A stretch of DNA of 64,000 nt, taken from assembly GCA_026770705.1 (NCBI GenBank), contig JANJGN010000001.1:76198001-76262000 (forward strand), read 5' to 3'. Both the position numbers and the translations under genes were made by a program. The DNA comes from Isurus oxyrinchus (lineage: Eukaryota). This document shows positions 1-64,000 of this stretch, in pieces. Numbering within the stretch: the first letter of the stretch is position 1; every line of letters begins with the position of its first letter. Under the pieces are notes generated by a model. The model did not search any database. It was not told the origin of the DNA and saw nothing but the letters and a program-made list of their open reading frames with translations.

Positions 1-232
1 TGTGACTCTAGCAGGGAAGAGAGTGCTGCTATGGGCTGTAACAGCTTCCAGCAATAACTATTTACAGTTCAGGTCTCTCAGGAGGCCTTCTTTGACAGCT
101 TGAGCATCATAGCCCAACAACCTCGGCTGGTGTTTCCGAGACCACGTTTTCGGGGCAGTTGCCCACTATGTCTCTCAGTGGATGATTTCACCATCTTCGG
201 GTGCAGTCACATTCACTCCTGCTGCCCTTTCA
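1..232 (-). mobile_element. Harbinger DNA transposon remnant: start of the Myb/SANT-like second gene (runs off the window)
   Basis: Minus-strand translation near 1-60 gives LLLEAVTAHSSTLFPA. This resembles the LLEAV..RR..LFP helix of Harbinger Myb/SANT proteins and the equivalent segment of the element at 36871-39786. Confidence 0.5.
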
Positions 233-329
233 CTCCAAGCTGAAAACCAGAAAGGGAGTTATAAAGGGTGAGGATAGAAAAGGAGGAAAAAGAAAGAGAG
301 AGACGCTAGTAGTGGAGGAAGGACTTATT

Positions 330-1080
330 TCCAGATCAGAACCCATTGGAGACATGTTTAAATTTGTACAAGCTCCTCCGAAGTTTGAGGAAAGAGATGT
401 AGAAGCATTCTTTATTTCATTTGAAAAGATAGCTCGACAAATGAAGTGGCAAAAAGAAATCTGGACATTACTTTTATAGTCTAGGTTGGTAGGTAAAGCT
501 CATCAGGTTTATGCTTCACTTTTAGAAAAGGTATCGGTGGATTACGATGCAGTAAAAAATGCTAATCTGAGTGCATGTGAATTAGTCCCCGAGGCATACA
601 GGCAGAAATCTTAGAATATAAGAAAACAGCCTGGGCAGACCTATATTGAATTTGAAAAGGTAAAGCAAAGGAATTTTGACCATTGGATAAGGACATTAAA
701 GGGTGGAGACAAAGTATGAAGTTCTTAAGGACATAATTCTCTTGGAAGAAATTAAAGATTCACTTCATCTTGCAGTTAGAACCCATGTTGAAGACCAGAA
801 GGTTAAAACAGCTAGACTGGCAGCAGACATGGCTGATGATTATGAATTGGTCCACAGATCTAAACCCTTTTTCTCTCATCCCCATCAATTTGAGAAGGAT
901 AGTAGATGGGAAGGTGAAAGGAAGGCAAGTAATCAGGGGAGAAGGGACAGTTGGGAATTCTCAGGAAATTTCTCCTCAGACCATAAGGAAGGTGCTGAGG
1001 GTGGAAATGACATTGAACGCCTAAGTTTTCATTATAACAAGGTAGGACATGTTAGGGCAGATTGCTGGAAATTAAAGTAG
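330..1080 (+). pseudogene. Gypsy/Ty3 LTR-retrotransposon gag (SCAN-like capsid plus decayed zinc knuckle), disrupted
   Basis: PPKFEERDVEAFFISFEKIARQMKW...ELVPEAYRQK...LKDIILLEEIKDSL...ADMADDYELVH; knuckle remnant FHYNKVGHVRADCWKLK; in-frame stops at 477-479 and near 612. Confidence 0.9.
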
Positions 1081-1269
1081 ACCTATTGCAGTAGTAAGAA
1101 CTCCTAGGGAATCCTCAGGAAAAGTTGTGTCAGCAAAGCAAATGGTTGTTAAAACTGTAGCAGTAGTACAGATGAAACATGTTCCCTCAGAACATACAGA
1201 AAAGGGGGATATGGTTCACAGTAATCTTTGATTACTGGTGAAGGAAGTCAGGCTAACAGAGGGTCTGGC

Positions 1270-1575
1270 TGTTTTGTGTCAAGGGGAGAAGTGTTCCTTT
1301 GCTCCTCCAACAAAATAAGTAAGCAGATTAAAATTTTGAGAGATACAGGGGTGAACCAATCATTGATGGTGGCTGATGATACAATTTGTGTTCTGGATAG
1401 TTTTATGAAGGAACAAGTATTAATAAGAGGTAATAATGGAATTTATGAACATGTTTCTTTGTGTAAAGTTAACTTACAAAGTCACTTTGTACATGGAATT
1501 TTTATGTGGGAACAAGTTCTAAATCACCTATTGAAGAGGCGGATTTTATTCTGGGTAATGATTTGGCTAGTGGAG
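1270..1575 (+). pseudogene. Gypsy aspartic protease, one frameshift near 1504
   Basis: IKILRDTGVNQS active-site motif, then VSLCKVNLQSHFVHG and, after the frameshift, the C-terminal FILGNDLASG motif. Confidence 0.88.
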
Positions 1576-1586
1576 ACAGTAATGTG

Positions 1587-2065
1587 GTAACGACTGTATT
1601 GCAGCAGGCAGTTGATCATGTTGATCTTAACAAACTTCAGGAAGCTACTGTGGCCAAAAATGAAACACTTATTGCAGATAACAAGCAATTGAAGGAAAAC
1701 CTGATTAAAGTAGAAAACCAACCAAGGAGTTTGCTAATGAAAGAAGAGATTTGGTGAGAACAATTGAGAACCTGTCACAGAAAATAGAACACTTGACTGA
1801 GGACTTAAAATGTCTAAATGAGAAACTTATAGAAGCAAACTTAACAAAGACCAATCTTCAGTTAAATCTTGATGAACTTCAAGCATCACCAGTTGCTATG
1901 ATATACCAGGGAAAATGCCTTGCAATAGAAAAGGAATTGTTGGTGAATCAGAATAGTTGGTTGAATGCAGAATTAAAAACCAAGACTAACGAACTGTTAG
2001 AACTTCGTTGAGAAACGAGCAATAAGATTCTCGAACTTTGAAGCAAACTGAACGAAAGGGAAAAT
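1587..2065 (+). pseudogene. TPR: Captured intron-less N-terminal fragment of nucleoporin TPR, fused in frame to the protease
   Basis: VTTVLQQAVDHVDLNKL matches TPR MAAVLQQVLERTELNKL. After a frameshift near 1720, [56 protein letters not shown]...[36 protein letters not shown] matches recalled human TPR [57 protein letters not shown]...[37 protein letters not shown]. Confidence 0.9.
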
Positions 2066-2638
2066 ATGTGTGATATGGAGTTTCACAGTTCCAAAATTGT
2101 TCCTGTGAATAAAAACTCTTTGCTGAATTGTGGTCCAGTCGAGCAAAGAACTGACCCAAGTAAAATTATTGATGTATCAACCTTAGTAATGGACAATATG
2201 AAAACAGCTAAAGTGTCTGCAGAATTGTAAATCAAGAATTGCCAACAAAAAGGACTGAAATTGCAAAATGTTCTGGAAAATTCACTGACCAGAGAGACAG
2301 ATTTCCAAGTGCTTGCTGATAATAATATACAAAATACAGCAGTTGGAATCCGAGGCAAGTGGACAGTTTGCAAAAGACCATTCAAAACCTGGAATGGAGT
2401 GGAATGATATAGTTCGTGGATTATGTATAAGAATTGAAATTAAAGAGAAGACAGAAATATGGGTCAGTGCTACCAAAGAAAGGACATGCAGGAAGAAAAA
2501 GAGAAATCATTGACATTCCTCGGAAAGAAAAGCAAAAAGATTTCTTTTTGCCTTTTCTTCTTTCTCCTGACACATCATGTAGCTCATCGTTGTCTTGTTT
2601 TTTTTTGCTTGTTGTCCTTTATCTGTTTCAGCTTGGAG

Positions 2639-2888
2639 CAATAGCTAGACAAATGGCAGCCTCTGCAATGGCTGCCACGCTCCCTTTAAATTGGGTCCAC
2701 TCCTGACCTGGTCTCACCTCCCTCCTGTGTCCACCAATGCTAATTGGGCAGTGAATGGGAATTCATGGCCAATTAGCAGATTTGCATCCAGAAATCGCAT
2801 TGGATGCGTGTTCTCCCATTAGTGTGGGACCGGGTCCTGGAAGTCTTTGTGATTCCAGGTTCCTGACCCAGGAACTGAAATCTAGCCC
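2639..2888. mobile_element. Harbinger right terminus
   Basis: Ends GAAATCTAGCCC followed by TTA; same TIR type as the GGGCTGGATTTT...AAAACCAGCCC ends of the element at 36871-39786. Confidence 0.55.
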
Positions 2889-4004
2889 TTATAAACTTGA
2901 CAGTTATGCTGCTTTATGTATGTAGTTGGTGCTGAAAATGGATGCAAAAATAATGTTGTAAATATCCCTTCAGCTCTTTACTTGTGAGTTTTATTCAGCA
3001 TGGCTCTTTTATCAGGTAAAAGATAAATGATAGGTTCAGTGTGCTACGGCTATCTGGATAAAGCTATTAAGATGTATTCTCCAGTTCACTTTCAAATGTT
3101 TTGGCAAGGCAATTGCTTAGGGACCTTGTTCCACGATAAGATGAACACTGACAATCATAGTGAGAGAATTATGCTGCTGCAAGTAGGAAAATATTGCACA
3201 TCACGGAGTCATCCAGGGAGTTGCAGGCACAGAGAGAGCTCAAGAAAAATAATCAACTACACGCTTTTGAGTGCAGGAGGCCTTGAAGGTGGTCAGACAC
3301 AAAGGACAATTTTATTCAGTTTCAAATGGTATTGTGAAATAAGTTTTTAATGCCTGTTTTATATTACTAATCCTAATTTAGATCTTTAATTGGTACACTG
3401 GGAAGGAATAAATAGCACCTGAAAATATTTCCATGTATAAAGCCTTGATTTGCCTTCTTTATTAGATTCCATGATTTACGTTTCCAAACCAGTTCCTTTC
3501 ATAGGTCCGTTTTAGTGTAAGGCAATACCTAGTGCTATCCTTACTTTAATTTATGTTCACTCCCTCTTGTGAAATAGGCCACAAGACTTCCTGATCAGTG
3601 GCATTTATTTTTCTATCACTTCTTGAAACTGATACTTGAACACTGTGAATGTTGTCTACTGAGCACACTTACACTTGGTGCATGCGCATAAACTAACACC
3701 AAATGGAGTATAAATGATGCGCAGTAATAAAAATGTCATAAATGATGTATGCAAGCATGGTTTGAAGGCTGTAATAAAATTTTGGGGTTCAGATGGCTGT
3801 TATTCAGTGCATGAGTTTTGCTCTAGAGGTTTGCAATGTCATCCAACTGTTTCCTTTATTACATGTTGTATCTTGGCTCTATGTAAAGCTTATGTTGTTA
3901 AAACCACATCACTTAAGATACAAACAGACCTGAATGATTTGCCACAAGATCATGTACTGAGAGTTTTCTAAAAATAAACAAGATAGCTCTAATAAGTGAA
4001 GGAA

Positions 4005-5480: not shown

Positions 5481-7840
5481 CACAGAATCACAGTGCAGAA
5501 GAGGCCCTTCAGCCCATCGAGTCTGCACTGACACATGAGAAACACCTGACCTACCTATCTAATCCCATTTACCAGCACTTGGCCCATAGCCTTGAATATT
5601 ATGGTGTGCCAAGTGCTCATCCAGGTACTTTTTAAAGGATGTGAGGCAACCCGCCTTCACCACCCTACCAGGCAGTGCATTCCAGATCGTCACCACCCTC
5701 TGGGTAAATAAGTTTTTCCTCACATCCCCCCTAAACCTCCTACCTCTCACCTTGAACTTATGCCTCCTTGTGACTGACCCTTCAACTAAGGGGAACAGCT
5801 GCTCCCTATCCACCCTGTCCATGCCCCTCATAATCTTGTACACCTCGATCAGGTTACCCCTCAATCTTCTCTGCTTCAATGAAAACAACCCAAGTCTATC
5901 CAACTTCTCTTCATAACTTAAATGTTTCATTAGGCAACAGCCTGATGAATCTCCTCTGCACCCCCTCCAGTGCAATCACATCCTTCCTATAATGTGGCGA
6001 CCAGAGCTGCACACAGTACTCCAGCTGTGGCCTCACCAAGGTTCTATACAACTCCAACATGACCTCCCTACTTTTGTAATCTATTCCTCGATTGATAAAG
6101 GCAAGTGTCCCATATGCCTTTTTCACCACCCCACTAACGTGCCCCTCTGCCTTCAGAGGTCTATGGACACGTGTCAAGGTCCCTTTGTTCCTCAGAACTT
6201 CCTAGTGCCATGCCGTTCATTGAATACTTCCTGGTCAAATTACTCCTTCCAAAGTGTATCACCTCACACTTCTCAGGGTTAAATTCCATCTGCCACTTAT
6301 CTGCCCATTTGACCATCCCGTCCATATCTTCCTGTAGCCCAAGACACTCAACTTCACTGTTAACCACCTGGCCAATCTTTGTGTCATCTGCAAACTTACT
6401 AATCCTACCCCCCACATAGTCTATGTCGTTTATATAAATGACAAATAATAGGGAACCGAGCATAGATCCCTGTGGTATGACACTGGCTTCCAGTCACTAA
6501 AGCAGCCTTCTGTCATCACCCTCTGCCTCCTACAACTAAGCCAATTTCGTATCCACCTTATCAAATTACCCTGTATCCCATGTGCATTTACCTTCTTTAT
6601 AAGTCTCCCATGTAGTACCTTGTCAAAGGCTTTGCTGAAATCCATATAAACTACATCAACTGCACTACCCTCATCTACACACCTGGTCACCTCCTCAAAA
6701 AATTCAATCAAATTTGTTAGGCATGACCTCCCTCTGATAAAGCCATGCTGATTATCCCTGATCAAACTTTGCCTCTCCAAGTGGAGATAGATTCTCTCCT
6801 TCAGAATTTTCTCCAATAGTTTCCCTAACATTGACATGAGACTCACTGGTTTGTAGTTCCCTGGCTTATCTCTACAACCCTTCTTAAATAGCGGAACCAC
6901 AGCTGTTCTCCAGTCCTCTGGCACCTCCCCCATGGCCAGAGAGGAATTAACGATTTGGGTTGGAGCCCCTGCGATCTCCTCCCTTGCCTCTGTCAGCAGT
7001 CTGGGACGCAAATCATCCAAACCCGGGGATTTGTCCACTTTTAAGTGTGCCAACACCTCCAGTACCTTGTCATTCCCTATATCAATTTGCTTAAGAACCT
7101 CGCAGTCTCTCTCCCCAAGTTCGATACCTTCATCCTCATTCTCTTGTGTGAATACGGACGTGAAGTATTCATTCACCACTCTAGCGATGTTCTCTGGATC
7201 CACCCATAGATTGCCTCCTTGGTCCCTTACGGGCCCTACTCTTTCCCTGGTTATCCTCTTTGCATTAATATACTTAAAGAATATCTTGGGATTTTCCCTA
7301 CTTTTACCAGCCAGAGCTTTCTCATATCCCCTCTTTGCTCTCCTAATTGCTTTCTTAAGCTCCACCTTGCACTGTCTGTACTCCACTAATGCCTCTGCTG
7401 ATTTGCTTCCCTTGTACCTGCTAAAAGCCTCGCTTTTCCTTCTCATCGTAACCTGAATATCTCTGGTCATCCATGATTCTCTGGGCTTGTTCTTCCTTCC
7501 TATCGCCCTTGAGGGAACATGTTGAGCCTGTACCCTCCCCATTTTGAACACCCCCCACTGTTCTTCTGTAGATTTCCCCACAAGTAATTGTTCCCAGTCT
7601 ACCTTGGCCAGATCCTGCCTTATTTTACTAAAATCCACTCTCCCCCAATCCAAAAAATTTTTTTGCAACTTGTCAATTTCTTTGTCCATAACAAACTTAA
7701 ACTGTACAATGTTGTGGTCACTGTCGCTAAAATGCTTGCCCACCACCTCAGCCACCCGTCTGGCTTCATTCCCCAGAGTTAGGTCCAGCAAAGCACCGTC
7801 CCTTGTTTGACTCTCTACATATTGACCTAAAAAGTTCTCT
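5481..7840 (-). mobile_element. Younger 5'-truncated CR1 LINE (ORF2 reverse transcriptase)
   Basis: 453-aa ORF with PLFKKG, QHGFIRGRSCLTNL and YMDFSKAFDKV; then FADDTK and LVRPQLEYCVQLWSP; repeat tail at 5481; TTAAT duplicated at 5476-5480 and 7841-7845. Confidence 0.95.
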
Positions 7841-8140
7841 TTAATGACTTCGATGTATCAAAATTATGGGGGAAAGTAAGTGGTGAGGAGACTGAGTGGG
7901 TGATCAGGCAAGATGGAAAGCAATGTGACATAGTGTTAAGGTATCCAGTTTTGGACAGAATTTTTTTTTTTTTAAAAATCAACACTTTTTGAATAATATG
8001 GGACTGGGAATTGTGTGCATTCAGAATGATCTTGGTGTTCTTGTACCTGAATCATGGAAAATCAACATGCAGGTACAGAAAACCATTAGGGACGCAAATG
8101 GAATCTTGACTTTTGTTATAAAGAGCACAAGGATAAAGAA

Positions 8141-17026: not shown

Positions 17027-18570
17027 GGGTAGAATTTTTGACCTGAGGTGGTGGGACGGAACTAGAGTGGAGTGAGAGTCGGATCCCATTGTGGCATGCT
17101 GGCCCTCCAACATGGTCCTGCCTTAAAGAAGGCAAGCTGCACCAATGCAGCGGTTGAGCATTTCAGCACTTAAGTGAGGCATTTAGTAGTTAAAGAGTGG
17201 AAACTCATTCTTCGATTGTAGGCACAGGGACAACAGTGGGTCATGACCCTTTTCCCAAGTAGGAGCTGGAATTACAATGGGGCACCAGTCATGGATGCTG
17301 GGCATTTAGCATCAGTGCGTTAAAGGAGAATGGCTTAGAGAGCTGTGAAGGTAGTAGCACACACTGGCCATTGAGAGTGCAATGGTACCATACAGGAACA
17401 CTTGTAGACACTGGAGTAGTTGTCAGAGAGCGGAGGGATGGGGAGTGACCCTACAGCATAGCACATGTCCAGACTGTTGTCACATTGCTTCTAGAGGTAA
17501 GGGAGCCAAAATGTGGAGATGGGATGAGCAGCAACGAGGAGCAAACACTTCCAGTGCCACTGCATGCTATTGTACCTGAGGCATGCAGAGATGTTGCTCG
17601 AGGGGCAGGGAGAGAACATGGGCAATATCGTCCACATAAGGTATGCTGATAATGAATTATGTTCCTCCATCTAACAAAGTATCAGTGTTGCTGAAGGATA
17701 TGTTTTTCAAGGTAGATGGTAGAGTTATGTGCACTGGTGCACCTTCTTTGTCATTGATCACATTGGCACCCCTGCCAGTAGCAGTCCAAGTGAATATGGC
17801 TCTGAACATCTTTGCCTCTGAATCCTTCCAAGGGCTGGCAGTTGACCTCACTGGCATCTCACAGTCGGCTGCCCATAACAGCACAAGGGAGGTGATGGGT
17901 GCCCTGTTTGAGGGGGTGTTGGATTGCCTTGAGTTCACTAATGATATGGCCACACAGGGACAGAGGAAAGTGGGATTTGTGTCCCTTGCAGGATTCCTTC
18001 AGCTGCAGGGTGTTGCCCAGTGCACACACGTGGTCATTAAAGCATCAGCAGAGCAGTCAGGGGTGTTCATTAACAGGAAGGGTTTCCATTCAATTTTCAG
18101 CAGGTGTTTGGCCACCAGAAGCATTTCCTCCAGGTCAGTGCACAGTATCCAGGCAGCTGTCATGACTCCTTCATCCTTTGGCAATTGCAGGTGCTGCAGA
18201 TTGAGAGACTATATAGATGCCTGCTCAGGGACAGCAGCTATCCGTTGATGAGATGGCTGCTGACAGCTATATGCAACCCTTTGACAGAAGCACAAAAGTG
18301 CTACAACCCCTCTCATCTCAGCACAAGGACCACCATGAAACAGCCCAGTGGACTGCTCAAGATGTGGTTCCACTGCCTGGATTATTTGGGGAGTGCTCTC
18401 TGGTGTGCTTCTTCAAGGATGGCTTGGATAATGTGACCTGTTGTGCTCTTCAAAATATGGCCCTCCAGAGAGGCATGAGCCTCAAAGAGAAGTGAAGGAG
18501 TGGTACATTTCCTCAGAGGAGGAGGAATAGCGTGACTCCATAGCTGGTTGTGTTAGCAACACAGAAGTGT
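17027..18570 (+). mobile_element. Harbinger transposon, left TIR and decayed HARBI1-like transposase, 3' truncated
   Basis: Starts GGGTAGAATTTT. LPVAVQVNMALNIFASESFQ..DLTGISQSAAH, FINRKGFHS, YPGSCHDSFIL, LLRDSSYPL, GLLKMWFHCLD and CCALQNMA motifs across frameshifts. Confidence 0.9.
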
Positions 18571-20139: not shown

Positions 20140-21900
20140 GTGGGCGATGGAAGGAAATGGTGGGGCACAGTTCAGACAAGATCAGATAAACTCATGATCC
20201 TTCGTGATTTCAATGACAGAGTTTGCACAGACCATCAGACCTGAGAGGGTAGGGAAAGACAAAGTTGGTAATAATAATTACCACCTTCTGCAAAAGACAT
20301 GTGCAGAGAATGGCCTCATTACCAACACTGTGTTCCACCTGCCAAACTGAAACAAGACATCCTGGATTCATATTCACGCTAAGCACCGGAATCTAATTGA
20401 TCTCGCTGTTGTTAGAAGGGCAGGAAAGATGTCATCAGAGTGACCAAAGCCATGCATGGAGCAGATTGTTGGACTGACCACAGACTCATTGGCTCAAAGC
20501 TCAACATCCCATATTCAACCAAGAGACACCCCAGGGGAAAAAGTCAATAAAAGAGATTTAACATTGATACTCAAAATGGATACTGAGAGGCAAAACTTCT
20601 CAGAAGATCTGGATTGCCAACTATTTATCTCACAATATGGAGGATGACTGAATAGCCTTCAGAAACCTGATGCACTCTAATGCCTTAGAATATCTGGGAA
20701 CAACCACTCATTAGCACCAGGGCTGGTTTGATGAAAACGATGAGGTGATTCACACTCTGCTGGATAAGAAACACCATTTATTAGCTTAAAAAAAAAGTCT
20801 GCCTTCAACAACACCTGTAAAATCATCCAATCAAAGCTCAGAGATGTAGGATCGCTGGCTAAGCAAAAAAGCACAAGAAATACTATCACATGCAGATATT
20901 AAATGCTTTCATTATGCTTGCAAGACAATCTAAGGTCTATAGGCTTCCAGAAATTTCTCTAACCTTGGCATTGCCGAAATCAAACTGATTACAGAGAAGG
21001 CCAGAACAGAATGGCATATCTCATCCAGCAGATTCAAAATCATCCCATTATTTTTAACAAACCAGCCGTGGTGCTTATGAATGTTAGGTCCCAGATGTGT
21101 TGTGAATTGACTCTCAATGATGAGGTTAATTGTCTGCTTGCCCCAAACTGATGTTAACATATAATTTGCCAATACTCTGAACAAAGCTGAGATCATGATC
21201 AGTCTCCTGTCGAGCGGCAAAGTACCATGGTCAGATGCAATACCAGGTGAAATATACAAGCCAGGAGGCACAATACTCAATGACAAACTCACCTAACTAT
21301 TCCAGGTGATGTGGAACTAGGAAGTAATCCTCAAAGTCTAAGATACATCAACTGCCCACCTTCACAAAAGGAAGGGAAATCGTTGAGCTTTCGGCAGCCA
21401 TTGAGGAATCTCCCTACAGTACATTGCTTGGAAAAACTTGGAAGAATCCTGCAAAATTGTTTGATGCGGCATCTTTTACCAGAGAGTCAATGTGGCTTTA
21501 GAAAAGGTTGCGTTACAGTTGACATGGTGTTTGCTGCCTGTCAGCTGCCAGAGAAATGCCAAGAGCAGAACTGTAACTTGTACTCAGTATTTGTGGATTT
21601 GCCGAAAGCCTTTGACACTGTTAGTTGTGAGGGCCTATGGAAAATCATGGCAAAATATAACTGTCCAGAAAAATGTATCACTGCACTACGGCATTTCCAC
21701 AATGGCATGCTTGCTTGTGTCCTGGATATTGGAGAGTCTTCTGATGCCTTCCCAGTGAAGCAGGGCTGTGTGTTTGCCCCTACCTATTCAGCATGATGTT
21801 CTCTGCCATCGCCTCTGAAGCAATGTGTTAGCAAAAGCAGCATTCATATTGGATATCTCACAGTCTTCAATTTGTGGAGACAAGAAGCCAAAACCAAAAT
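20140..21900 (+). mobile_element. RTE LINE 5' part (endonuclease end and RT start), inverted relative to its 3' part
   Basis: ADCWTDHRL, LPESQCGFRKG...DMVFAACQL.EKCQEQ...VFVDLPKAFDTV and VKQGCVFAPT motifs; ends RRQEAKTK. Confidence 0.88.
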
Positions 21901-24629: not shown

Positions 24630-27286
24630 TGAGTATATTTGGGAATTTGCTTCAAAGTGGGAATTCGGCGTATAGGGGCAAAGAGGTGCTTTAGGTAAGG
24701 TTTACTGCAAGAAGTAAAGCGTACTGAATGAAGAGTTCAGTGAAGGGCAGGGAGGAGGTGCTTTTTTTTTTTTGCTTCTACTCTTTTTCAGCCCCTAGTA
24801 TTTGATTTCCACTTTGCAGCAGAAGGAGCAGGTAAACCAGTAACTAGTATTATTAGTTTTATCAGTATTATAAGTACTGTATTGTTTTATCAGTGTTGTA
24901 AAGTTTACTGGCAGTGCCAAAACCTATTGGGAAGTATAAGTTTTATTAATATTAATTAATTAACAAATTAATTAGCACATATTGGAGATCGCAGGGCAAG
25001 TGATGTGTTGCGATTGCAGAATGTGGGAACTTTTGGATACCAGTGTGATCCAGGGCAAACGCATCTGCAGTAAGTGTTTATGGCTATAGGAACTTCAACT
25101 CTGAGTTATTGAGCAGGAGGCTGAGCTGCAGACACTGCAGCATATTAGGGAGGGGGAAAGTTACCTGGACACTTTATTCCAGGAAGTGGTCATACCCCTT
25201 AGGATGGAGTCTTTTGATTTGGTCAGTGGTCAGGGATAGGAGAGTATGACTGCAAGTGAGGCAGGTAAGAGGACCCAGAGGGCAGGGGTGCAGGAGCCTC
25301 GGCCCTTGCAATTGTCCAATAGGTTTGAAGATTTTTTCAGCTTGTTTGGATGAGAGTGGAAGCTTCAGGGTGGGTGAGCTAACTGGCCATGGCACTGTGG
25401 TACAGGAAGCCATTTCAGCAGGGGAGAGTTACAAGGAATGTATTGGTAGTAGGGGACAGTGTAGTCAAGAGGGATTGACACCGTTCTCTGCAGCAAAGAA
25501 TGAAAGTCCAGACAGCTGTGTTGCCTACCTGGTCCCAGGATTCATGACATCTGCTCGGGACTGGAGATGAATTTGCAGTGGGAGGGGGAGGACCCTGTTG
25601 TCATGGTCCATGTTGATACCAATAACATAGGCAAGGCAGAGAAGGAGGTTCTGCGTAGTCAGCATGAAGAGCTTGGCACCAAAATAAGAAGCAGATCCTC
25701 AAAGGCCATTACCTCTGAATTATTACCTGAACCACATGCAAATTGGCATAGGACAAATGAGATTACAGAGGTGAATGCGTGGCTCAAAGCTAAGTTGTGG
25801 GGGCAAGAGTACAAATTTGGGAAGATGTGGTAAACCAAAGAGTAGAGACAAGGCAAAGAGAAAGGTATAATTATGGGAAATGGAAAAACAGACCATGACT
25901 GGAAGGGATAGAGAGTACAAATCTAACAGTAAATCAACAAATGAGACTAGAGGTTATCAAAAGAATACCAGGATAAAACTCAAGACTCTATCTGAATGCA
26001 CGAAGCATTCAAAACAAAGCAGATGAACTGAGAGTGCACACAGAAATAAATAAGTATGATTTGATAGCCACTGCAGAGACATGGCTGCAGGAGGACATGG
26101 ATTGGGACCTGAATATTAAAGGGTATAGGACATTTAGGAACAACAGGAAGTGAGGAAAAGGTGAAGAGGTGACCCTATTAGATAATGATGGTATTAGCAC
26201 AATACAGAGGGATGACCTCAGTTCAGGAAACCAGGATGTGGAAACGGATTGGGTAGAGATGAGAAATGGTAAAGGCAAGAATTCACTTGTGGGAGTCGTG
26301 TATAGGCCCCTAATAGTAACCACATGGTAGAATGGAACATATACAAAGAAATAAAGGGAGCTTGTCCGAAAGGCACGGCGATAATCATGATTTTAATCTA
26401 CATATAAACTGGAAAAGTCAGATGGGCAAATATAGCCTAGGTGAGGAGCTCCTAGAATGTTTCTGGGATAGTTTCTTAGAACAGCATGTTCTGGAGCCAA
26501 CCAGAGACCAGGCTATACTAGACCTGGTATTGTGCAATGAGATGGGATTAATTAATGATCTCACAGTGAAGGTGCCCCTAGGTAGCAGTGACCATAATAT
26601 CCTTGAGTTTTACATACAGCTTGAGGGAGTGAAGAGTGGATCCAAGACTATATTGTTAAGCTTAAATAAGGGCAGTTATGAGGGCATGAATGCAGAGCTG
26701 GCTAAAGTGAATTGGCAAATTAGGTTAAGGGGGGATCGGTCAATAGAGGTGCAGTGGCAAACATTTAAGGTGATGTTTCAGAATACACAGAATGGATACA
26801 TTCCAACGAGCAAGAAAATGCCCAAGGGATAGAAAGTGGGAAACAACAGGCCAGTTAGCTTAACATCTGTCATATAGAAAATGGTAGAACCTCACATTAA
26901 AGAAGCTATAGTAGGGCACTTGGATAAATTCATGGTATTCAGGCAGTGTCAACATGGCTTTATGGAGGGAAATCATGTTTAACCAACTTACTGCAGTTCT
27001 TTGAGGGAGTAACATGTGCTGTGTGGAGCGGGGAACAGATGGACGCACTGTACTTAGATTTCCAGGTGACATTTGATAAAGTGTTGCGTCTAAGGTATTG
27101 TGGAAAATAAAAACTCATGACATAGAGGGTGACATACTGGCATGGATAGAAGATTGGCTGCTAACAGGAAGCAGAGAGTAGGCATAAATGGGTCCTTTTT
27201 CAGGTTGGCAAGATGTAACGAATGGTGTGCCACAGGGATCAGTGTAGTGACTTCAACTGTTTACAATTTGTATAGATGACTTGGAT

Positions 27287-32289: not shown

Positions 32290-35200
32290 AAAGCAGAGTG
32301 CTGGAAATACTCCAGGTCTCACAACATCTGTGGAGAAAGAAAGTTAAATGTTTTGAGTCGAATATGACTTCAGAACTGAAGGAAGGCAGAAATGTGTTGG
32401 GTTTTATGCCATTGAAAGGGGGGTGGGGAAAGAAGAACATAACATAAGAAATAGGAGCAGGAGTAGGCCATTCTGCCCATCAAACATGCTCTGCCATTCA
32501 GTAAAATCATTGCTGATCTGATTGTGGCCTTAACTCCACTTTCCTACCTTCCCCAATAACCCTTTATTTCTATGTCAATCAAAAATCTGTCTAACTCAGC
32601 CTTGAATATATTCAATGACCCAGCCTTTACTGCTCCTTGAAGAAGAGAATTCCTGAGGTCAACAGCCTTCTTAGAGAAGAAATTCCTTCTCATCTCCATT
32701 TTAAATAGGAGATCCTTTATTTTTAAACTGTGCCCCCTAATTCTGGATTTCCCCCATGAGAGAAAACATCGTCTTATCATCTACTCTGCCAAACCCCCTC
32801 AGAATCTTGCATGTTTCAACAAAAAGGAATGTATGGGTTAGGATAGAAGATGGGAGAGATTAAATGATGAAGATGTCATGGAACAAAAGGCAAATGGAGT
32901 GGTAATGGTTGTAGTAAAGAAAGAAAGCATTTGTCCAGAGTGTGAATGGCAGAAAGAACAGCTCTGACGGAAAGCTAAAACAAAATTAAACAGGCACATG
33001 GCAAAAAAAAATATAAATGGGGTCAGAGTCCTTGGAAATTGTTGAACTTAGTGCGAGTCCAGAAACTTCAAATGCTGAATTAGAAGATGAGGTGCTGTTC
33101 CTAGAGTTTGAGTTGAGCTTCACTGGAACACTGTAGCAGGCTGAGGACAGAAATGTGAATGCGAGAGCAAGTTGATGAATTATAATGGTAAGTAACTGCA
33201 AGCTCAGGGCCATGCATATGTACTGAGTGGAGGTGTTCTGTAAAACAGTTCTCCATTCTGCATTTGGTCTCCCTAATGTAGAGTAGACCACATTGTGAGC
33301 AGCGAATACAATATGCTAAATTGAAAGAAGTGCAAGTAAATCGCTCCTTCACCTGGAATGAATGTTTGGGGCCTTGGATAGTGAGGTAAAAGAGCAGGTG
33401 TTACAGCTCCTGTGACTGCATGGGAAGGGGACAAGGTGTTGGGGATGATTGAGGATTGGATCACTGTGTTATGGAGGGAATGGCCCCATCTGAATGCTGA
33501 CAAGGGAGGGAAGGGGCAGATGTTTTTGGTGGTGACATCATGCTGTAGGTGGCAGAAATGGTGGAGGATGATCTTTTGAATGTGGAGGCTAGTGGGGTGG
33601 AAAGTAAGGACAAGGGGAATCCTATCATGGTTCTGGGATGGAGGGGACAGGCTGAAAGCAGAAGTGCAGTAAAGGGGTCAGTCATGTTTGAGGCCATGTC
33701 ACCCACAGTAGTTTTGGGAGGAGGGGAATCCTTGATTGAGAAAAAGGAAGACATATCAGAAATGCATCAAAACAGATGCGACAGAGATGCATGGCGATCT
33801 CGCGGAAGGCAGTGTGTGATGAAGCATAGTTGAGATAGCTGTGGAAGTCTGTGGGCTTACAGTGAATATTAGTAGATAGCCTATCCCCAGAAATAGAGAT
33901 AGAGAAGTCGAGGAAGGAAGGGAAGTGTTGGCTATGGACCATGTGAAGGTGAGAGAAGGGTGGAAATTAGAAACAAAGTTGAAGCTTACTTACAAAGTTG
34001 AACCGCCTCCTCTTCACCACGGACATCCAATCCCTGTACACCTCCATCCCCCTCCGGGATGATCTGATTGGTCTCTGTTTCTTCCTCGAACAGAGGCCCA
34101 AACAATCCCCATCCATCACTACTCTTCTTCGTATGGCTGAACTTGTTCTCACGCTGAACAATTTCTCCTTTGACTCCTCTCACTTCCTCCAAATAAAAGG
34201 AGTGGCTATGAGTACCCGCATGGGCCCCAGCTATGCCTGTCTCTTTATGGGGTATGTGGAACATTCCTTGTTCCAGTCCTACTCCAGCCCCCTTCCACAA
34301 CTCTTTCTCCGGTACATCGATGATTACTTCGGTGCCGCTTCATGCTCTCATCGGGACTTGGAAAAATTTATTAATTTTGCCTCCGCATTCAAAGGATCAT
34401 CCTCCGCCATTTCCGCCAACTCCAGCATGACGCCACCACCAAACACACCTTCCCTTCACATTCCCTGGCGGCATTCTGCAGGGATCGTTCCCTCCGGGAC
34501 ACCCTGGTCCACTCCTCCATCACCCCCTACACCTCAACCCCCTCCCACGGCACCGTCCCATGCAACCGCAGAAGGTGCAACTCCTGTCCCTTTACTTTCC
34601 GTCTCCTCACCGTCCAAGGGCCCAAACACTCCTTTCAAGTGAAGCAGCATTTCACTTGCACTTCCCTCAATTTAGTCTGCTGCATTCGCTGCTCCCAATG
34701 CGGTCTCCTCTACATTGGAGAGACCAAATGCAGACTGGGTGACCGCTTTGCGGAACACCTTTGGTCTGTCCGCAAGCGACCTCTCTGTCGCTTGCCATTT
34801 CAACACTCCATCCTGCTGTCATGCCCACATGTCCATCCTTGGCCTGCTGCATTGTTCCAATGAAGTTGAACGCAAACTGGAGGAACAGCACCTCATCTTC
34901 TGACTAGGCACTTTACAGCCTTCCAGACTGAATATTGAGTTCAACAATTTTAGATCATGAACTCTGTGCTCCATCCCCACCCCCTTTCCAATCCCCTTTT
35001 TTTCCAATAATTTATAAAGATTTTTTCTTTTCCCACCTATTTCCATTATTTTTAAAAGTATTTCCATCCATTGTTTTATCTCTACCTTTTAGCCTATATC
35101 GATCCCTTCCCCCCACACCACCCCTACTAGGGCTATCTGTATCTTTATTATCACATTCCTTAGATAATATCACCAGCTTCAACACCTTTTGCCTTTTGTC

Positions 35201-36390
35201 TATGACATCTTTAAGTTATCTCCACCTATCACTGGCCCTCTATCCAGCTGTACCTGTCCCACCCCCCCTTAAACCAGATTATATTTCACCTCTTTTCTAT
35301 TTTTCCTTAGTTCTGTTGAAGAGTTATACAGTCTCAAAACGTTAACTGTGTTATTCTCCGCAGATGCTGTCAGACATGCTGAGTTTTGCCAGGTATTTTT
35401 GTTTTTGTTTTGAAGCTTACCAGTTCTTGGCGCCAGTACAGTCTTCAATGTACCGGAACAAGAATTGAGGGAGGAGGGCTGAGTAGGACAGGAACAAGGG
35501 ATGTTCCACGTAGCCCACAAAAAGATGGGCATAACTAGGAACCATGCAGGTACCCATAATGACGCCTTTTATTTGGAGGAAGTGAGACAATTTAAAGGAT
35601 AAATTGATCCATGAGCGAACATGCTCAGCCAGGTGGGGGAGGGTGGTGGTGGATGGAGAGTGGTTTGGACACTGGTCAAGGAAGAGAGGAGAGCCCTCAG
35701 ACCACCCTGGGGTGGGTGGGAGGTGTAGGGAGTTTGGATGTCCATAGTAAAGAGGAGGTGGTTAGGGTCCGGGAACAGGAAATGGTTGAAATGACATAGG
35801 GTGTCAGAAGAGTCATGGATGTAGATAGGAAGAGACTGGACAAAGGGAGAAAAATGGTGTCAACATAGGAAGAGATAAGTTCGGGGGGGGCAGGAACAGG
35901 CTGAAAAGATAGGTCTACTAGGACAGTCCTGTTTGTGATTTTGGAAAGGAGGTAAGAAGCGGTCTTGGTGTTGGGGGACTATAACGTGAGAATCTGTGGA
36001 GGGAAGATCTCCAGAGGAAATGTCAGTGATAGTCCTGAGAACTGTGGCTTGATGTTCGGTGGTGAGGTCATAGTCCAGGGGGAGATGGGAAGAAATGTCT
36101 GAGAGTTGGCACTCAGCCCCTGCAAGGTAGAGATCAGTATGCCAGACAACAACAGCACCAACTTTGTCAACAGGTTTGATAGCAATGTCTGTGTTAGACC
36201 TGAGAGAATAGAATGCAGCAAGTTCAGAGAGAGAGACAGTTAGTGAGAGAAATTAATATGGCTGATGTGATGCCAACAATTCTCAATGTAAAGATCAAAA
36301 GCGGGTAAGAGGCCAGAGGGAGGGGCTCAGATGGAGGGAGAATACTGGAGGTGGGTGAAAGAGTCTACTGGTCTGGGGGATGATTACTAG
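32290..36390 (-). mobile_element. Old Penelope-like element (RT plus GIY-YIG) with a CR1 tail (about 32437-32820) and a younger Penelope nested inside
   Basis: YCIRCSQCGLLYIRETKCR and FLDFSISISGDRLSTNIHCKPTD motifs; upstream RT region resumes after 35420. Confidence 0.88.
33998..35409 (+). mobile_element. Younger Penelope element, 5' truncated and internally deleted
   Basis: DIQSLYTSIP, GVAMSTRMGPSYACLFM and FLRYIDD RT motifs; CIRCSQCGLLYIGETK GIY-YIG motif; 11-bp TSD TTGAAGCTTAC at 33979-33989 and 35410-35420. Confidence 0.93.
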
Positions 36391-48639: not shown

Positions 48640-49923
48640 TGTGAAGAATTGCAGTGTGTTAAGAAATAGAGATAGTTTAAGTAAGTTGTATTGGTATTTG
48701 TAGATGTTAGGAATGAGTTTTATCTTTAAAATTTGATTGATTTGTATTCCTGTATCTGTGTATTAAGAAAGCTCAAATTGAGTTTTAGTTTCACTTTATA
48801 AAGGTGCCTGCATTTTAATGAGGTTTTTTACAACTGTAAGCTAAGTTAAATAAACAAGGGTAGAAGAATTAGACTAGAAACGGGGCTAGAGAGGCAAGTC
48901 CCTTCCACAGACACAAAAACTAGAAACAGCAGTTTTAGTTTGTTTGAAGCCAGGACTCCAGAGAGACTGGACACTGGGAGAGGGAGCTGCAGATTTCCCA
49001 AAAGAACCAGAAGGTCCCAAGGCCAAAGGAGTGAGACAGAAACTGGGGAAAGTCCAAAGAAGACCTTCTAGTCAAAGAAAGGACAGGAACCTGGAAAAAG
49101 TCCTGTTAATGAAGATGAGTGAGGAGTAGAGAGAGAGGCTCCAAGCTTCTGATTTAAAGAGACAAAAGCTGCAGGAAGCAGATTTAAAGCGAGAACAGGA
49201 AAGAAGGTCGAAAGAGACAAATGAAGGCATGTAACTCTTTGCTAAGGGCATGTGAAACAGTGGTACTGTTGATGCCTGAGTTGGTGAGAGAGAGTGCGTG
49301 GAAGATGGCTTGAGTGCATATGGTGACCCAGGGGAGAAGAACATCGGAAAGAGAGTTTGAAACCCTGGAGGGTGAAGCCTTGCAGAAGACGTCTGAGAGG
49401 AAGTGTCAATTTGGGAGAAGATTCCAAAGCGAGGCCTTGGAGAGTGAAGATTGGAAACCCTCGTGTGAAAAATGGAGTGCAGTGAAACAGGTTGGCTCAT
49501 GGTGTGATAAGCTGCTGGGGGAGAGTTGAGGGGAGATCCATAGCATCAGGTTGAGGTGGTATCTGTCACTTGGTTTCAGAGCATGGTGTGTCCGACAACA
49601 GGCTGCCTATTGGTTTACATGGACTGGTATTTACTGTATACATTAAAGTATAAGATGTATTATGTAACTTTTGCTATCCTTACAAATCTGTATACATCTA
49701 TAAAGGTATAGTTGTGGGTGAAGGAGTATTGTAATATGGCTCATCTTTTCTTGTTTAATAAACGTTATATTCTTTTGTTAAAAGCTCATCAGCTGACTTC
49801 TGTGACTCTGTTCAGTAGCTATGCTCCATGTATCTAAACAAACTAATAAAAGTAGGATCTAACAAATGGGTTCCACTCTGGGATTGGGCTTGTCCAGGGG
49901 TAACCTCAGCTGGAATCATAACA
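48640..49923 (+). mobile_element. Probable solo LTR (about 1.3 kb)
   Basis: Ends TCATAACA like the LTR at 27287-28194, with AATAAA near the 3' end. The 5' end TGTGAAGA and the TSD (CAAT/CATT) are imperfect, so the left boundary is uncertain. Confidence 0.65.
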
Positions 49924-54710: not shown

Positions 54711-56746
54711 AAGAAAAGAGTTGACTTTTCGAGTCCTCATGACCCTTCAACAGAACTGAGTGAATATAAGGAGAGGGGTGAAATATAAGCTGGTTTAAGG
54801 TGGGGGTGGGGTGGTGTGGTTGTAGGGACAAGCAAGCAGTGATAGGAGCAGATAATCAAAAGATGTCACAGACAAAAGAACACAGAGGTGTTGAAGGTGG
54901 TGATATTATCTAAACGAATGTGCTAATTAAAAATGGATGGTAGGGCACTCAAGGTACAGCTCTAGTGGGGGTGGGGTGGAAAGACTAGCAGGGCATAAAA
55001 GGTTTTTAAAATAATGGAAATAGGTGGGAAAAGAAAAATCTATATGAATTATTGGAAAAAACAAAAGGAGGAAGAAACAGAAAGGGGGTGGGGATGGAGG
55101 AGGGAGTTCAAGATCTAAAGTTGTTGAATTCAATATTCAGTCCAGAAGGCTGTGAAGTGCCTAGTCGGAAGATGAGGTGCTGTTCCTCCAGTTTGCGTTG
55201 GGCTTCACTGGAACAATGCAGCAAGCCAAGGACAGACATGTGGGCAAGAGAGCAGGGTGGAGTGTTAAAATGGCAAGCGACAGGGAGGTTTGGGTCATTC
55301 TTGCGGACAGACCGCAGGTGTTCTGCAAAGCGGTCGCCCGGTTTACGTTTGGTCTCTCCAATGTAGAGGAGACCACATTGGGAGCAACGAATGCAGTAGA
55401 CTAAGTTGGGGGAAATGCAAGTGAAATGCTGCTTCACTTGCAAGGAGTGTTTGGGCCCTTGGACGGTGAGGAGAGAGGAAGTGAAGGGCAGGTGTTGCAT
55501 CTTTTGCGTGGGCATGGGGTGGTGCCATAGGTGGGGCCCTCAACCGTGTCTGGCCCATCTCCCGTGCATCTGCCCTCACGCCTTCTCCTCCCTCCCAGAA
55601 ATTTAATAGGGTCCCCCTTGTCCTCACTTATCACCCCATCAGCCTTCACAGTCAAAGGATCATCCTCCGCCATTTCCGCCAATTCCAGCATGATGCCACC
55701 ACCAAACACATCTTCCCTTCACCACCCCCCCGGCGGCATTCCGTAGGGATCGTTCCCTTCAGGACACCCTGGTCCACTCCTCCATCACCCCCTACTCCTC
55801 AACCCCCACCTATGGCACCTCCCCATGCCCACACAAAAGATGCAACACCTGCCCCTTCACTTCCTCTCTCCTCACCGTCCAAGGGCCCAAACACTCCTTT
55901 CAAGTGAAGCAGAATTTCACTTGCATTTCCCCCAACTTAGTCTACTGCATACGTTGCGGTCTCCTCTACTTTGGAGAGACCAAACGTAAACTGGGCGACC
56001 GCTTTGCAGAACACCTGCGGTCTGTCCACAAGAATGACCCAAACCTCCCTGTCGCTTGCCATTTTAGCACTCCACCCTGGTCTCTTGCCCACATATCTGT
56101 CCTTGGCTTGCTGCATTGTTCAGTGAAGCCCAATGCAAACTGGAGGAACAGCTCCTCATCTTCCCACTAGGCACTTTACAGCCTTCTGGACTGAATATTG
56201 AATTCATCAACTTTAGATCTTGAACTCCCTCCTCCATCCCCACCCCCTTTCTGTTTCTTCCCCCTTCCTTTTGTTTTTTCCAATAATTTATATAGATTTT
56301 TCTTTTCCCACCTATTTCCATTATTTTTAAATCTTTTATGCCCTGCTAGTCTTTCCACCCCACCCCCACTAGAGCTGTACCTTGAGTGCTCTACCATCCA
56401 TTCTTAATTAGCACATTCGTTTAGATATCAACACCTTCAAAACCTCTGTGTTCTTTTGTTCTTTTGTCTGTGACATCTTTTGATTATCTGCTCCTATCAC
56501 TGCTTGCTTGCCCCTACAACCACCCCTCACTTCCCTCCCCCCACCCCACTGCACCCTGTCCCCCACCTTGCACCAGCTTATATTTCACCCCTCTCCTTAT
56601 ATTCACTCAGTTCTGTTGAAGGGTCATGAGGACTCGAAATGTCAACAACATCTTCACCTCCGATGCTGCCAGACCTGCTGAGTTTTTCCAGGTAATTTTG
56701 TTTTTGTTTTGGATTTTCAGCATCCGCAGTTTTTTGTTTTTATCTT
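54711..56746. mobile_element. Penelope element with inverted duplicated 3' portion (- 54711-55530, + 55531-56746)
   Basis: The GIY-YIG region (YCIRC..GLLY.GETKRK.GDRFAEHLRSV.KNDPNLPVACHF) and the pLTR are present on both strands. Confidence 0.92.
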
Positions 56747-61573: not shown

Positions 61574-63478
61574 AACAAAAACAAAATTACCTGGAAAAAC
61601 TTAGCAGGTCTGGCAGCATCGGCGGAGAAGAAAAGAGCTGACGTTTCGAGTCCTCACCACCCTTCCACTGAACTGAGTGAATATAAGGAGAGGGGTGAAA
61701 TATAAGCTGGTTTAAGGGTGGTGGGGGGGGTGGTGGGGGGGGTGGGGGGAGGGGGGGGGGGAGGGGGGGGGCGGTGGTGTGGTTGTAGGGACAAGCAAGC
61801 AGTGATAGGAGCAGATAATCAAAAGATGTCACGGACAAAAGAACAAAAGAACACGGAGGTGTCTAAACGAATGTGCTAATTAAGAATGGATGGTAGGGCA
61901 CTCAAGGAACAGCTCTAGTGGGGGTGGGGTGGAAAGACTAGCAGGGCATAAAAGATTTAAAAATAATAGAAATAGGTGGGAAAAGAAAAATCTATATAAA
62001 TTATTGGAAAAAACAAAAGGAAGGGGGAAGAAACAGAAAGGGGGTGGGGATGGAGGAGGGAGTTCAAGATCTAAAGTTGTTGAATTCAATAGTCAGTCCA
62101 GAAGGCTGTGAAGTGCCTAGTCGGAAGATGAGGTGCTGTTCCTCCAGTTTGCGTTGGGCTTCACTGGAACAATGCAGCAAGCCAAGGACAGACATGGGCA
62201 AGAGACCAGGGTGGAGTATTAAAATGGCAAGCGACAGGGAGGTTTGGGTCATTCTTGCGGTCAGACTTCAGGTGTTCTGCAAAGCGGTCACCCAGTTTAC
62301 GTTTGGTCTCTCCACTGTAGAGGAGACCGCATTGGGAGCAATGATTGCAGTAGACTAAGTTGGGGGAAATGCAAGTGAAATGCTGCTTCACTTGAAATGA
62401 GTGTTTGGGCCCTTGGACGGTGAGGAGAGAGGAAGTGAAGGGGCAGGTGTTGCATCTTTTACATGGGCATGGGGAGGTGCCATAGGTAGGGGTTGAGGAG
62501 TAGGGGGTGATGGAGGAGTGGACCAGGGTGTCCCAGAGGAAATGATCCCTATGGAATGCTGCCGGGGGCGGTGGGGGTGGGGGGTGGGGGGGTGGGGGGG
62601 GGGTGAAGGGAAGATGTGTTTGGTGGTGGAGTTGGTGGAAATGGCGGAGGATGATCCTTTGAATGCGAAGGCTGGTGGGGTGATAAGTGAGGACAAGGGG
62701 GACCCTATTAAGTTTCTGGGAGGGAGGAGAAGGCATGAGGGCGGATGCGCGGGAGATGGGCTGGACACAGTTGAGGGCCCTGTCAACGACCGTGGGTGGA
62801 AAACCTCAGTTAAGGAAAAAGGAGGACATGTCAGAGGAACTGTTTTTGAAGGTAGCATCATCAGAACAGAAGCGAAGGAACTGAGAGAATGGGATGGAGT
62901 CCTTACAGGAAGCGGGGTGCGAGGAGCTGTAGTCAAGGTAGCTGTGGGAGTCGGTAGGCTTGTAATGGATATTGGTGGACAGTCTATCACCAGAGATTGA
63001 GACAGAGAGGTCAAGGAAGGGAAGGGAAGTGTCAGAGATGGACCATGTGAAAATGATGGAGGGATGGAGATTGGAAGCAAAACTAATAAATTTTTCCAAG
63101 TCCTGATGAGAGCATGAAGCAGCACCGAAGTAATCATCGATGTACTGGAGAAAGAGTTGTGGAAGGGGGCCGGAGTAGGATTGGAACAAGGAATGTTCCA
63201 CATACCCCATAAAAAGACAGGCATAGCTGGGGCCCATGCAGGTACCCATAGCCACACCTTTTATTGGGAGGAAGTGAGAGGAGTTGAAGGAGAAATTGTT
63301 CAACGTGAGAACAAGTTCAGCCAGACGGAGGAGAGTAGTGGTGGATGGGGATTGTTCGGGCCTCTGTTCGAGGAAGAAGCTAAGGGCCCTCAGACCATCC
63401 TGGTGGGGGATGAAGGTGTAGAGGGATTGGACGTCCATGGTGAAGTGGAAGTGGTTGGGGCCAGGGAACTGGAAAAAA
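61574..63478 (-). mobile_element. Young 5'-truncated Penelope element (RT, GIY-YIG, pLTR)
   Basis: 210-aa ORF MDVQSLYTFIP...GVAMGTCMGPSYACLFM...QYIDD...FLDLSVSISGDRLSTNIHYKPTD; GIY-YIG YCNHCSQCGLLYSGETKRKLGDRFAEHL. Confidence 0.95.
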
Positions 63479-64000
63479 TTATTTCATTTGTGTTCAAGTG
63501 ACGTTTTACTGAGGATTGCCTTGCAGTTGATCCCAGATCATGTCAAATTTGGTTATGTTGTGATTGCTGTCTTCAGCTTATCACATCAAAGTTGTTGTTC
63601 CCCAGCTGTACCACTACTTATATTGCCAGAATGCTGTCTTTTTTAGCCATTATCATGCTCAGATGAGAGTTACCGTTCATGAATCTCAAACGAACTGGTT
63701 GAGAAAGTAGTCATATATTATAATTATGAGCTCTGATTCTGGACTGGTTGGGTAAAGATCCCATTAAAATTGTATTTCTGTTTGCAGATAATTTCTTTAC
63801 CATGTCATCTATCCTGTTTAATGTGATCTGGTGGGGTGTAGCAAGCCTCTGTAATTAGCTTTCTTTTCCTTTACAATTCATGCTTACGGCCTTACTACCT
63901 TTTGAAGTGTAGTTTCAGTTGATACTTAGCACCCAAAATGCATGCGCAGCTCCCACAGAAACAACAAATGTGCTGTATTGTAATGATCCCAGCTGATGTT

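Follow-up and report, generated by a model that had tools for sequence, protein, structure and literature searches.

Acute transforming retroviruses are defective and helper dependent, with host mRNA fused in frame to gag and pol replaced, and the N-terminal coiled coil of the nucleoporin TPR dimerizes oncogenic TPR-kinase fusions. In LTR-mediated retroposition, as described in the available text of Tan 2016 (PMC5131818), pieces of spliced host mRNA replace part of the internal open reading frame (ORF) between two LTRs, short shared sequences lie at the joints, several genes can be combined, capture proceeds by template switching in the particle, and the retrocopies can move again as nonautonomous elements. 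Maize Bs1, in the account of one review (PMC13317346, in part), transduced three host-gene segments and has a chimeric ORF in an LTR element. Gmr1-like elements are given as a known source of the SCAN domain in the available part of a preprint (bioRxiv 10.1101/2025.03.03.638093).

We lean toward reading a locus of the shark Isurus oxyrinchus as a nonautonomous Gmr1-type element in which spliced, in-frame TPR sequence replaces integrase and reverse transcriptase and likely serves as a dimerizing coiled-coil rod of the element's own polyprotein. As in acute transforming retroviruses, a host piece is fused in frame to gag in the place of pol; unlike them, the element is germ line, lacks env, carries what is probably a structural rod and not a signaling protein, and is fixed and old. 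As in TPR-kinase fusions, the TPR coiled coil is joined to an enzyme that needs to pair (here a putative protease), with the differences that TPR stands behind the enzyme, that the partner is a retroelement protease, and that about amino acids (aa) 32 to 104 are mostly deleted. With LTR-mediated retrocopies the element shares lost introns and a host piece lying between LTRs with neither poly(A) nor a target duplication of its own. The cases in the available text of Tan 2016 (PMC5131818) are young or few-copy and mostly decay, whereas the shark case has at least 164 loci spread over four families, a single long frame fused to gag, and purifying selection while the elements were replicating. Unlike Bs1 as reviewed, it is found in a vertebrate, its three captured pieces are all coiled coils, and its TPR cassette appears to have moved between two Gypsy backbones. 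The SCAN-type capsid, zinc knuckle, and putative protease are like those described for Gmr1-like elements, whose integrase (IN), reverse transcriptase (RT), and RNase H (RH) are here replaced by host TPR and an extension; SCAN co-option is so reversed, the shark element having taken host exons.

In the literature searched (mostly open papers), we found no description of a TPR-, UACA-, or ninein-bearing element and no earlier vertebrate case of a selected, serially shuffled, high-copy capture. Host-mRNA capture by LTR elements, including multigene chimeras, is known; what is new is a capture that is high-copy, selected while mobile, serially shuffled, and in a vertebrate. Host genes are often built of retrotransposon parts; the opposite case, in which an element retains host exons under selection in its own protein over repeated cycles of copying, has rarely been documented for vertebrates. 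In the shark elements a single cassette is traceable over four families and two backbones, with two further host rods joining it. Such elements document from nature which features a defective Gag polyprotein requires in order to travel with a helper, and they are a naturally occurring counterpart of the pairing that TPR forces in cancer fusions.

Gag and a putative protease in the window copy

The window is a 64,000-nucleotide stretch of the I. oxyrinchus genome; all features named below lie on its forward strand. Positions 299 to 2438 are a decayed internal fragment of a multicopy, ~6-kb Gmr1-type LTR element of the nonautonomous family A, with both ends and both LTRs missing. The fragment matches dispersed copies continuously at 80 to 95% identity. 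Apart from a solo LTR of the same family at 48657 to 49923 (with a 5-bp target duplication, 1 mismatch), which lies 46 kb from the fragment, no LTR was found within 8 kb upstream or in the rest of the window. One copy, L041 (G000:C1:75802200-75812199), lies ~390 kb away and is 95% identical to the fragment (other copies, 80 to 85%), possibly through local duplication or conversion; its 5′ LTR is partly doubled.

Decayed gag occupies 348 to 1080 and includes a capsid/SCAN-like region (SCAN E = 0.0097 in the window by Pfam) and a zinc knuckle at about 1030 to 1070; in sister copies, SCAN (L045) and zf-CCHC (L049) score above the Pfam cutoff. The region at 1270 to 1573 is a putative protease, a label based on motifs and position: we take LRDTG (about 1333 to 1350) and FILGND (1545 to 1562) to be aspartic-protease motifs. 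The Asp at the catalytic position is kept in 30 of 38 copies, and the region is 34% identical to its counterpart in an element that carries pol. It has no match in Pfam, among PDB sequences, or by fold, and its predicted model is of low confidence (pLDDT 58). In the model of L041, the first TPR residues (window 1584 to 1598) form a predicted beta strand, also at low confidence, at the site taken by the last strand-like protease motif in pol-bearing relatives.

Spliced TPR sequence behind the putative protease

The earlier note, made from the letters of the window, claimed that the frame of the protease enters the N terminus of TPR four codons past FILGNDLASG, and this can be read directly at 1545 to 1635 (frame 3), as FILGNDLASG-DSNV-VTTVLQQAVDHVDLNKL, with VTTVLQQ four codons past FILGNDLASG. 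That the piece is TPR was borne out in three ways. The TPR family profile PF25481 matches window 1712 to 2008 (Pfam, E = 1.7e-10). In a protein search with the protease (PR)-TPR frame of a sister copy, every named top match was TPR or a TPR fusion, with a TPR-RAF fusion (P0014) among them; structures of human TPR 1 to 141 were found as well. We also located the host TPR gene, from G000:C16:74249790 onward (74.25 to 74.27 Mb), which is the genome's best PF25481 match. Its exons 1 to 12 were traced; their splice sites are canonical and their frame is open for 465 codons.

Comparison with this host gene defines the capture. Positions 1574 to 1679 hold about 10 bases of 5′ untranslated region and exon 1 codons 1 to about 31, with the TPR start-codon position at 1584 to 1586. 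Exon 3 is represented at 1680 to 1715 by two short pieces left after in-frame deletions (breakpoints read by eye) that take out about aa 32 to 86 and 93 to 104; the internal deletion suspected earlier is thus real and amounts to a net 201 bases. Exon 4 (1716 to 1799), exon 5 (1800 to 1903), exon 6 (1904 to 2065, PF25481 region), and the first codons, about 5, of exon 7 (2066 to 2079) follow, so that the element contains spliced exons 1 and 3 to 7. Across 1681 to 2079, 291 of 388 aligned bases are identical to host TPR coding sequence. Intron sequence is absent at the junctions 1715|1716, 1799|1800, 1903|1904, and 2065|2066, where the host gene has introns of 2,271, 1,240, 8,476, and 755 bases; this clean removal of four introns upholds the claim of intron loss, and the loss is exact at these junctions in 49/50, 57/62, 60/63, and 44/54 scored family A copies and is seen at six junctions in family B. 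The earlier note correctly saw a colinear coiled coil but ended it near 2065, whereas the capture spans 1574 to 2079. Capture through splicing at the exon 6 donor was considered and ruled out, since the 3′ end sits within exon 7.

The earlier picture of a frame that stops after TPR does not hold, as full copies run on for about 260 further codons, of which the window retains the first half (2080 to 2438). This extension consists of a disordered part and then a long predicted helix. No host source for it emerged from Pfam, the ESM Atlas (best 0.83, no verdict), a search of 1.84 billion proteins, or a fold search, and Pfam found no pol domain in it. The 1.84-billion-protein search returned 5 matches, namely 2 element-like pieces from the catshark Scyliorhinus torazame, which are its only real relatives, and 3 weak, unrelated ones.

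A multicopy element with a once-open frame

The junction region matches at all 40 scored places (82 to 100% identity; 35 span nearly the whole query) on many chromosomes, out of 1,238 candidates, and a PF25481 profile search matches at all 150 scored places (149 nonhost, 1 host) out of 1,646; neither candidate total is a copy number. The junction, whose count the earlier note had left to be made, is therefore multicopy. Among 208 nonhost loci, at least 164 are distinct (66 of family A, 33 of B, 34 of C, 13 of D, and 18 without a family), a sample shaped by the queries, from which family sizes cannot be taken. Sister copies, viewed in 10-kb stretches, are ~6-kb elements with ~1.3-kb LTRs ending in TG...CA, a site after the 5′ LTR that resembles, and is presumably, a tRNA-Pro primer site, and a purine tract. 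Both ends could be called in 22 copies, of which one at a locus edge was dropped; 8 of the 21 usable copies have a 5-bp target duplication (at most 1 mismatch) outside the LTRs. The two LTRs of a copy diverge by a median of 0.134 for family A (12 pairs), 0.28 for family C (5 pairs), and 0.24 for family D (3 pairs). In L092, several tandem family A units share LTR parts.

All copies examined are decayed, and the evidence for an ancestral ORF is therefore drawn from copies taken together. FILGN and the LQQ of TPR are separated by a length divisible by three in 42 of 49 scored family A copies and 11 of 11 family B copies. Across 38 family A copies that include most of the internal region (alignment positions 145 to 3,250), a frame of ~1,035 codons covering gag, PR, TPR, and extension has no codon column with ≥40% stops, whereas the other two frames over the whole internal region of the same copies have 89 and 132. 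The PR-TPR part of family B (20 copies) is likewise free of such columns. Families C (26 copies) and D (11 copies) have long stretches free of stops in which the phase drifts, perhaps only from noise in the alignment, and every column with ≥30% stops in B, C, and D is CpG prone. Single natural copies remain open across joints for 266, 345, and 382 aa. The consensus check proposed earlier thus gives one formerly open frame, flanked by LTRs in sister copies.

Within the window, this picture of a decayed, continuous Gag-PR-TPR frame needs amending: it applies across the family, but the TPR part of the window copy is itself broken by a private 13-base deletion near 1722 that shifts the frame (anchor-to-anchor distance, 86 bases versus 99 in 32 of 48 scored family A copies) and by stops at 2009 and 2039. 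These two stops are common to only 3/35 and 8/36 copies, and such sparse sharing fits decay after insertion, as had been proposed. With LTRs around sister copies, many copies, and introns lost, the central claim of the earlier note, that an LTR element took up spliced TPR mRNA in place of pol, stands, and past the protease we find no match to pol-bearing relatives, in line with its report of neither RT nor integrase.

Four families on two Gypsy backbones

Four element families, built on two kinds of Gypsy backbone, carry the TPR piece. Family A, that of the window, has a SCAN-type gag, the protease, TPR to codon ~238, and the extension. Family B has the 5′ joint and deletions of A, continues in TPR to about codon 462, and has two further in-frame TPR deletions of 96 and 186 bases. 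Family C (L110, L107, L133, and L225 to L244) consists of about 4.2-kb elements with ~250-bp LTRs that run from a short gag-like start through UACA aa ~680 to 1210 with deletions and ninein aa ~1160 to 1256 into TPR; capsid, protease, and pol were not seen in them. UACA and ninein are coiled-coil proteins linked to the nuclear envelope and centrosome. Carcharodon UACA matches the UACA piece at 60% identity (E = 5e-73). For ninein, the host exon was found, and the element piece recurs at 149 further places. The TPR part has both family B deletions plus one of 117 bases. Family D (L096, L090, L111, and L257 to L264) consists of about 3.1- to 3.5-kb elements, also with ~250-bp LTRs, that carry a different, non-SCAN gag-protease, which we take to be Mag-like, then a piece of the family B gag start and TPR codons ~107 to 240 (exons 4 to the start of 7). 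All four families retain the exon 5-6 core of TPR.

A single capture, after which the TPR piece was shuffled between families, is suggested by the common 5′ joint and by the deletions that A has in common with B and B with C. A tree groups C, D, and most of A, places host TPR within a family B grade, and does not prove a single origin; only 1 derived residue is shared. Family A looks like a recombinant: its LTR parts and PR-TPR region are those of family B, whereas its gag is like that of another family, one with pol. These pol-bearing Gmr1-type relatives are abundant, have the order PR-IN-RT-RH, and are 70 to 83% identical in gag DNA to family A, and their ILGND motif continues into integrase where family A turns to TPR. 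As helper candidates they have gag, but not LTRs, in common with family A, and no pol-bearing direct parent of family A was found.

A decayed full Gmr1-type element (gag, PR, IN, RT, and RNase H) lies on the strand of host TPR, about 27 kb upstream of it (G000:C16:74218400-74222750; L065, L064), with a gag 69 to 75% identical to that of family A. We considered it as the capturing provirus, an idea left unsupported because its family is abundant (40 scored of 4,592 candidates) and because the gag differs in family B, the family closest to the root.

Selection on the TPR codons

We placed a change on an element branch where one family departs from a host state that another family shows, and took as baseline the differences of single copies from the commonest codon of their family, which are mostly postinsertion decay (N/S = 2.73). 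The 72 distinct element-branch events (S, 36.5; N, 44.5) give a relative omega of 0.45 (P = 0.0004), and masking of CpG-prone codons gives 0.48 (P = 0.008). For all six family pairs the TPR frame has a lower N/S than shifted frames do, with only A-B and A-D reaching significance individually, and shifted frames have no replacement deficit. Between A and B, N/S is 1.36 in the protease (P = 0.08) and 1.30 in TPR (P = 0.008), about equal constraint. Family A changes avoid sites conserved among vertebrates (23/102 versus 23/53, P = 0.009), which was not seen in families B, C, and D. Within family A, where a comparison of 33 with 3 copies has weak power, only the capsid has a deficit, and TPR, protease, and extension do not. 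Several in-frame deletions sit at short repeats (read by eye), which favor in-frame loss without selection.

By this codon comparison, the TPR codons have been under moderate purifying selection after capture (relative omega, 0.45 to 0.48), and the selection test that the earlier note had suggested for the TPR branch thus yields a replacement deficit. That note had also listed outcomes contrary to its reading (a best match other than TPR, a single-copy junction, and a consensus out of frame and evolving neutrally); instead, the match is TPR, the junction has many copies, and the sequence is in frame and selected.

What the captured piece may do

A generic pairing rod fits these data best, because the docking sites of TPR are missing, a plain coiled coil is left, and family C adds two further host coiled coils. 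A long helix is predicted directly behind the beta domain in the structure model of L041. We envision that reverse transcriptase switched templates onto copackaged TPR mRNA inside a particle and so made the capture, and that the enzymes of the abundant pol-bearing Gmr1-type relatives would copy the product. The rod would replace the pairing formerly given by the lost pol domains, and paired Gag-protease molecules could be processed and coassemble with helper particles around element RNA; in family C, with neither capsid nor protease visible, the longer UACA-ninein-TPR rod may multimerize alone. In the available part of one study (PMC3291649), a zipper placed after HIV-1 protease raised Gag-PR multimerization and cleavage and lowered particle yield. 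The analogy cuts both ways, since forced pairing lowered yield, and by it a rod after a protease can affect processing in either direction.

The TPR piece might instead be a passenger, an in-frame filler that spread with a successful element and was kept open for the translation and stability of the RNA with little demand on protein sequence, which we regard as fairly unlikely. In its favor, relative omega is no lower than about 0.45, large stretches of TPR were freely lost, family A has changed 46 of 155 scored TPR residues, and young LTR-mediated retrocopies are often in frame and retropose again, as the available text of Tan 2016 (PMC5131818) reports. A need for an open frame would, however, act against stops and frameshifts and not against amino acid change, whereas the replacement deficit is significant with CpG-prone codons masked and absent in shifted frames, and the exon 5-6 core is retained in four families.

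A specific tie to the nuclear pore seems improbable. The captured TPR could be a docking module or a decoy that loosens the retention of unspliced RNA by host TPR, or the three rods could steer Gag to the nuclear envelope or centrosome: what remains of the first TPR coiled coil might pair with host TPR, TPR is the sole piece common to all four families, and both UACA and ninein have links to those sites. Human TPR, in the available part of a preprint, binds ZC3HC1 at site 1 (aa 29 to 88) and site 2 (386 to 481) and has its NPC-binding domain at 450 to 606 (bioRxiv 10.64898/2026.10.08.757499); a second preprint, in the part available, places the TPR sites at 40 to 60 and 390 to 660 (10.64898/2026.02.20.707084). 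On this map, which is human and not shark, families A and B have lost site 1 through their deletion of aa 32 to 86, families C and D lack it, and the deletion of aa 356 to 417 in B and C cuts into site 2. Both ZC3HC1 sites are deleted or cut in all four families, and the NPC-binding domain is absent throughout, the longest capture ending near aa 462. With all three mapped basket-binding sites deleted or absent, the pore-docking idea of the earlier note is weakened.

Chance insertion of a processed TPR pseudogene into a single gag-protease relic, for which lost introns alone would speak, is a negligible prospect. The same junction occurs at all 40 scored places, which lie on many chromosomes; the elements holding it have LTRs on both sides, their target duplications lie beyond the LTRs, and the 3′ end of the TPR piece is in exon 7, followed by coding sequence and no poly(A). 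A LINE-made processed pseudogene was likewise ruled out, as the TPR piece is present many times and has neither poly(A) nor a target duplication of its own.

Beyond the pairing-rod reading, we tentatively entertain a broader scenario, at somewhat short of even confidence, in which shark Gypsy elements domesticated host genes, exchanging their polymerase for selected rods (TPR, then UACA and ninein) that functioned within their own polyprotein and passing the TPR cassette between two Gypsy lineages, so that high-copy families parasitize intact elements and the rods may gather at the nuclear envelope or centrosome.

Age, range, and neighboring sequences

Contigs from sequencing runs of a second organism contain the window copy with its private deletion (1693 to 1813 and 1693 to 1817, one difference and no gap), and its flank there has 9 differences in 658 positions. 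Contigs also cross the PR-TPR joint of another copy in run X24, which is RNA only by presumption, and are no evidence of expression. Three S. torazame proteins match family A, one of them across the TPR-extension joint, at 51 to 57% identity, and we infer that they belong to elements. The host ninein exon is itself only 79 to 81% identical to its catshark and houndshark orthologues, so that family A likely predates the split from the catshark/houndshark lineage or moved sideways. One S. torazame gene model (P0111, scyTo_0012307) opens with a family A-type TPR piece joined to a PF13270 protein, either through exonization of an element copy or through a mistake in annotation. Element copies swamp shark-genome searches for TPR, UACA, and ninein and, as P0111 illustrates, have entered gene models.

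Elsewhere in the window, ARAGORN found no tRNA genes. From their translations, we tentatively labeled many decayed RT fragments of LINE-like and other retroelements at 5559 to 8000, 21284 to 21796, 26320 to 26832, 33273 to 36252, 55108 to 56170, and 61942 to 63483 and, in the same way, Harbinger-like nuclease fragments near 17640 to 18436.
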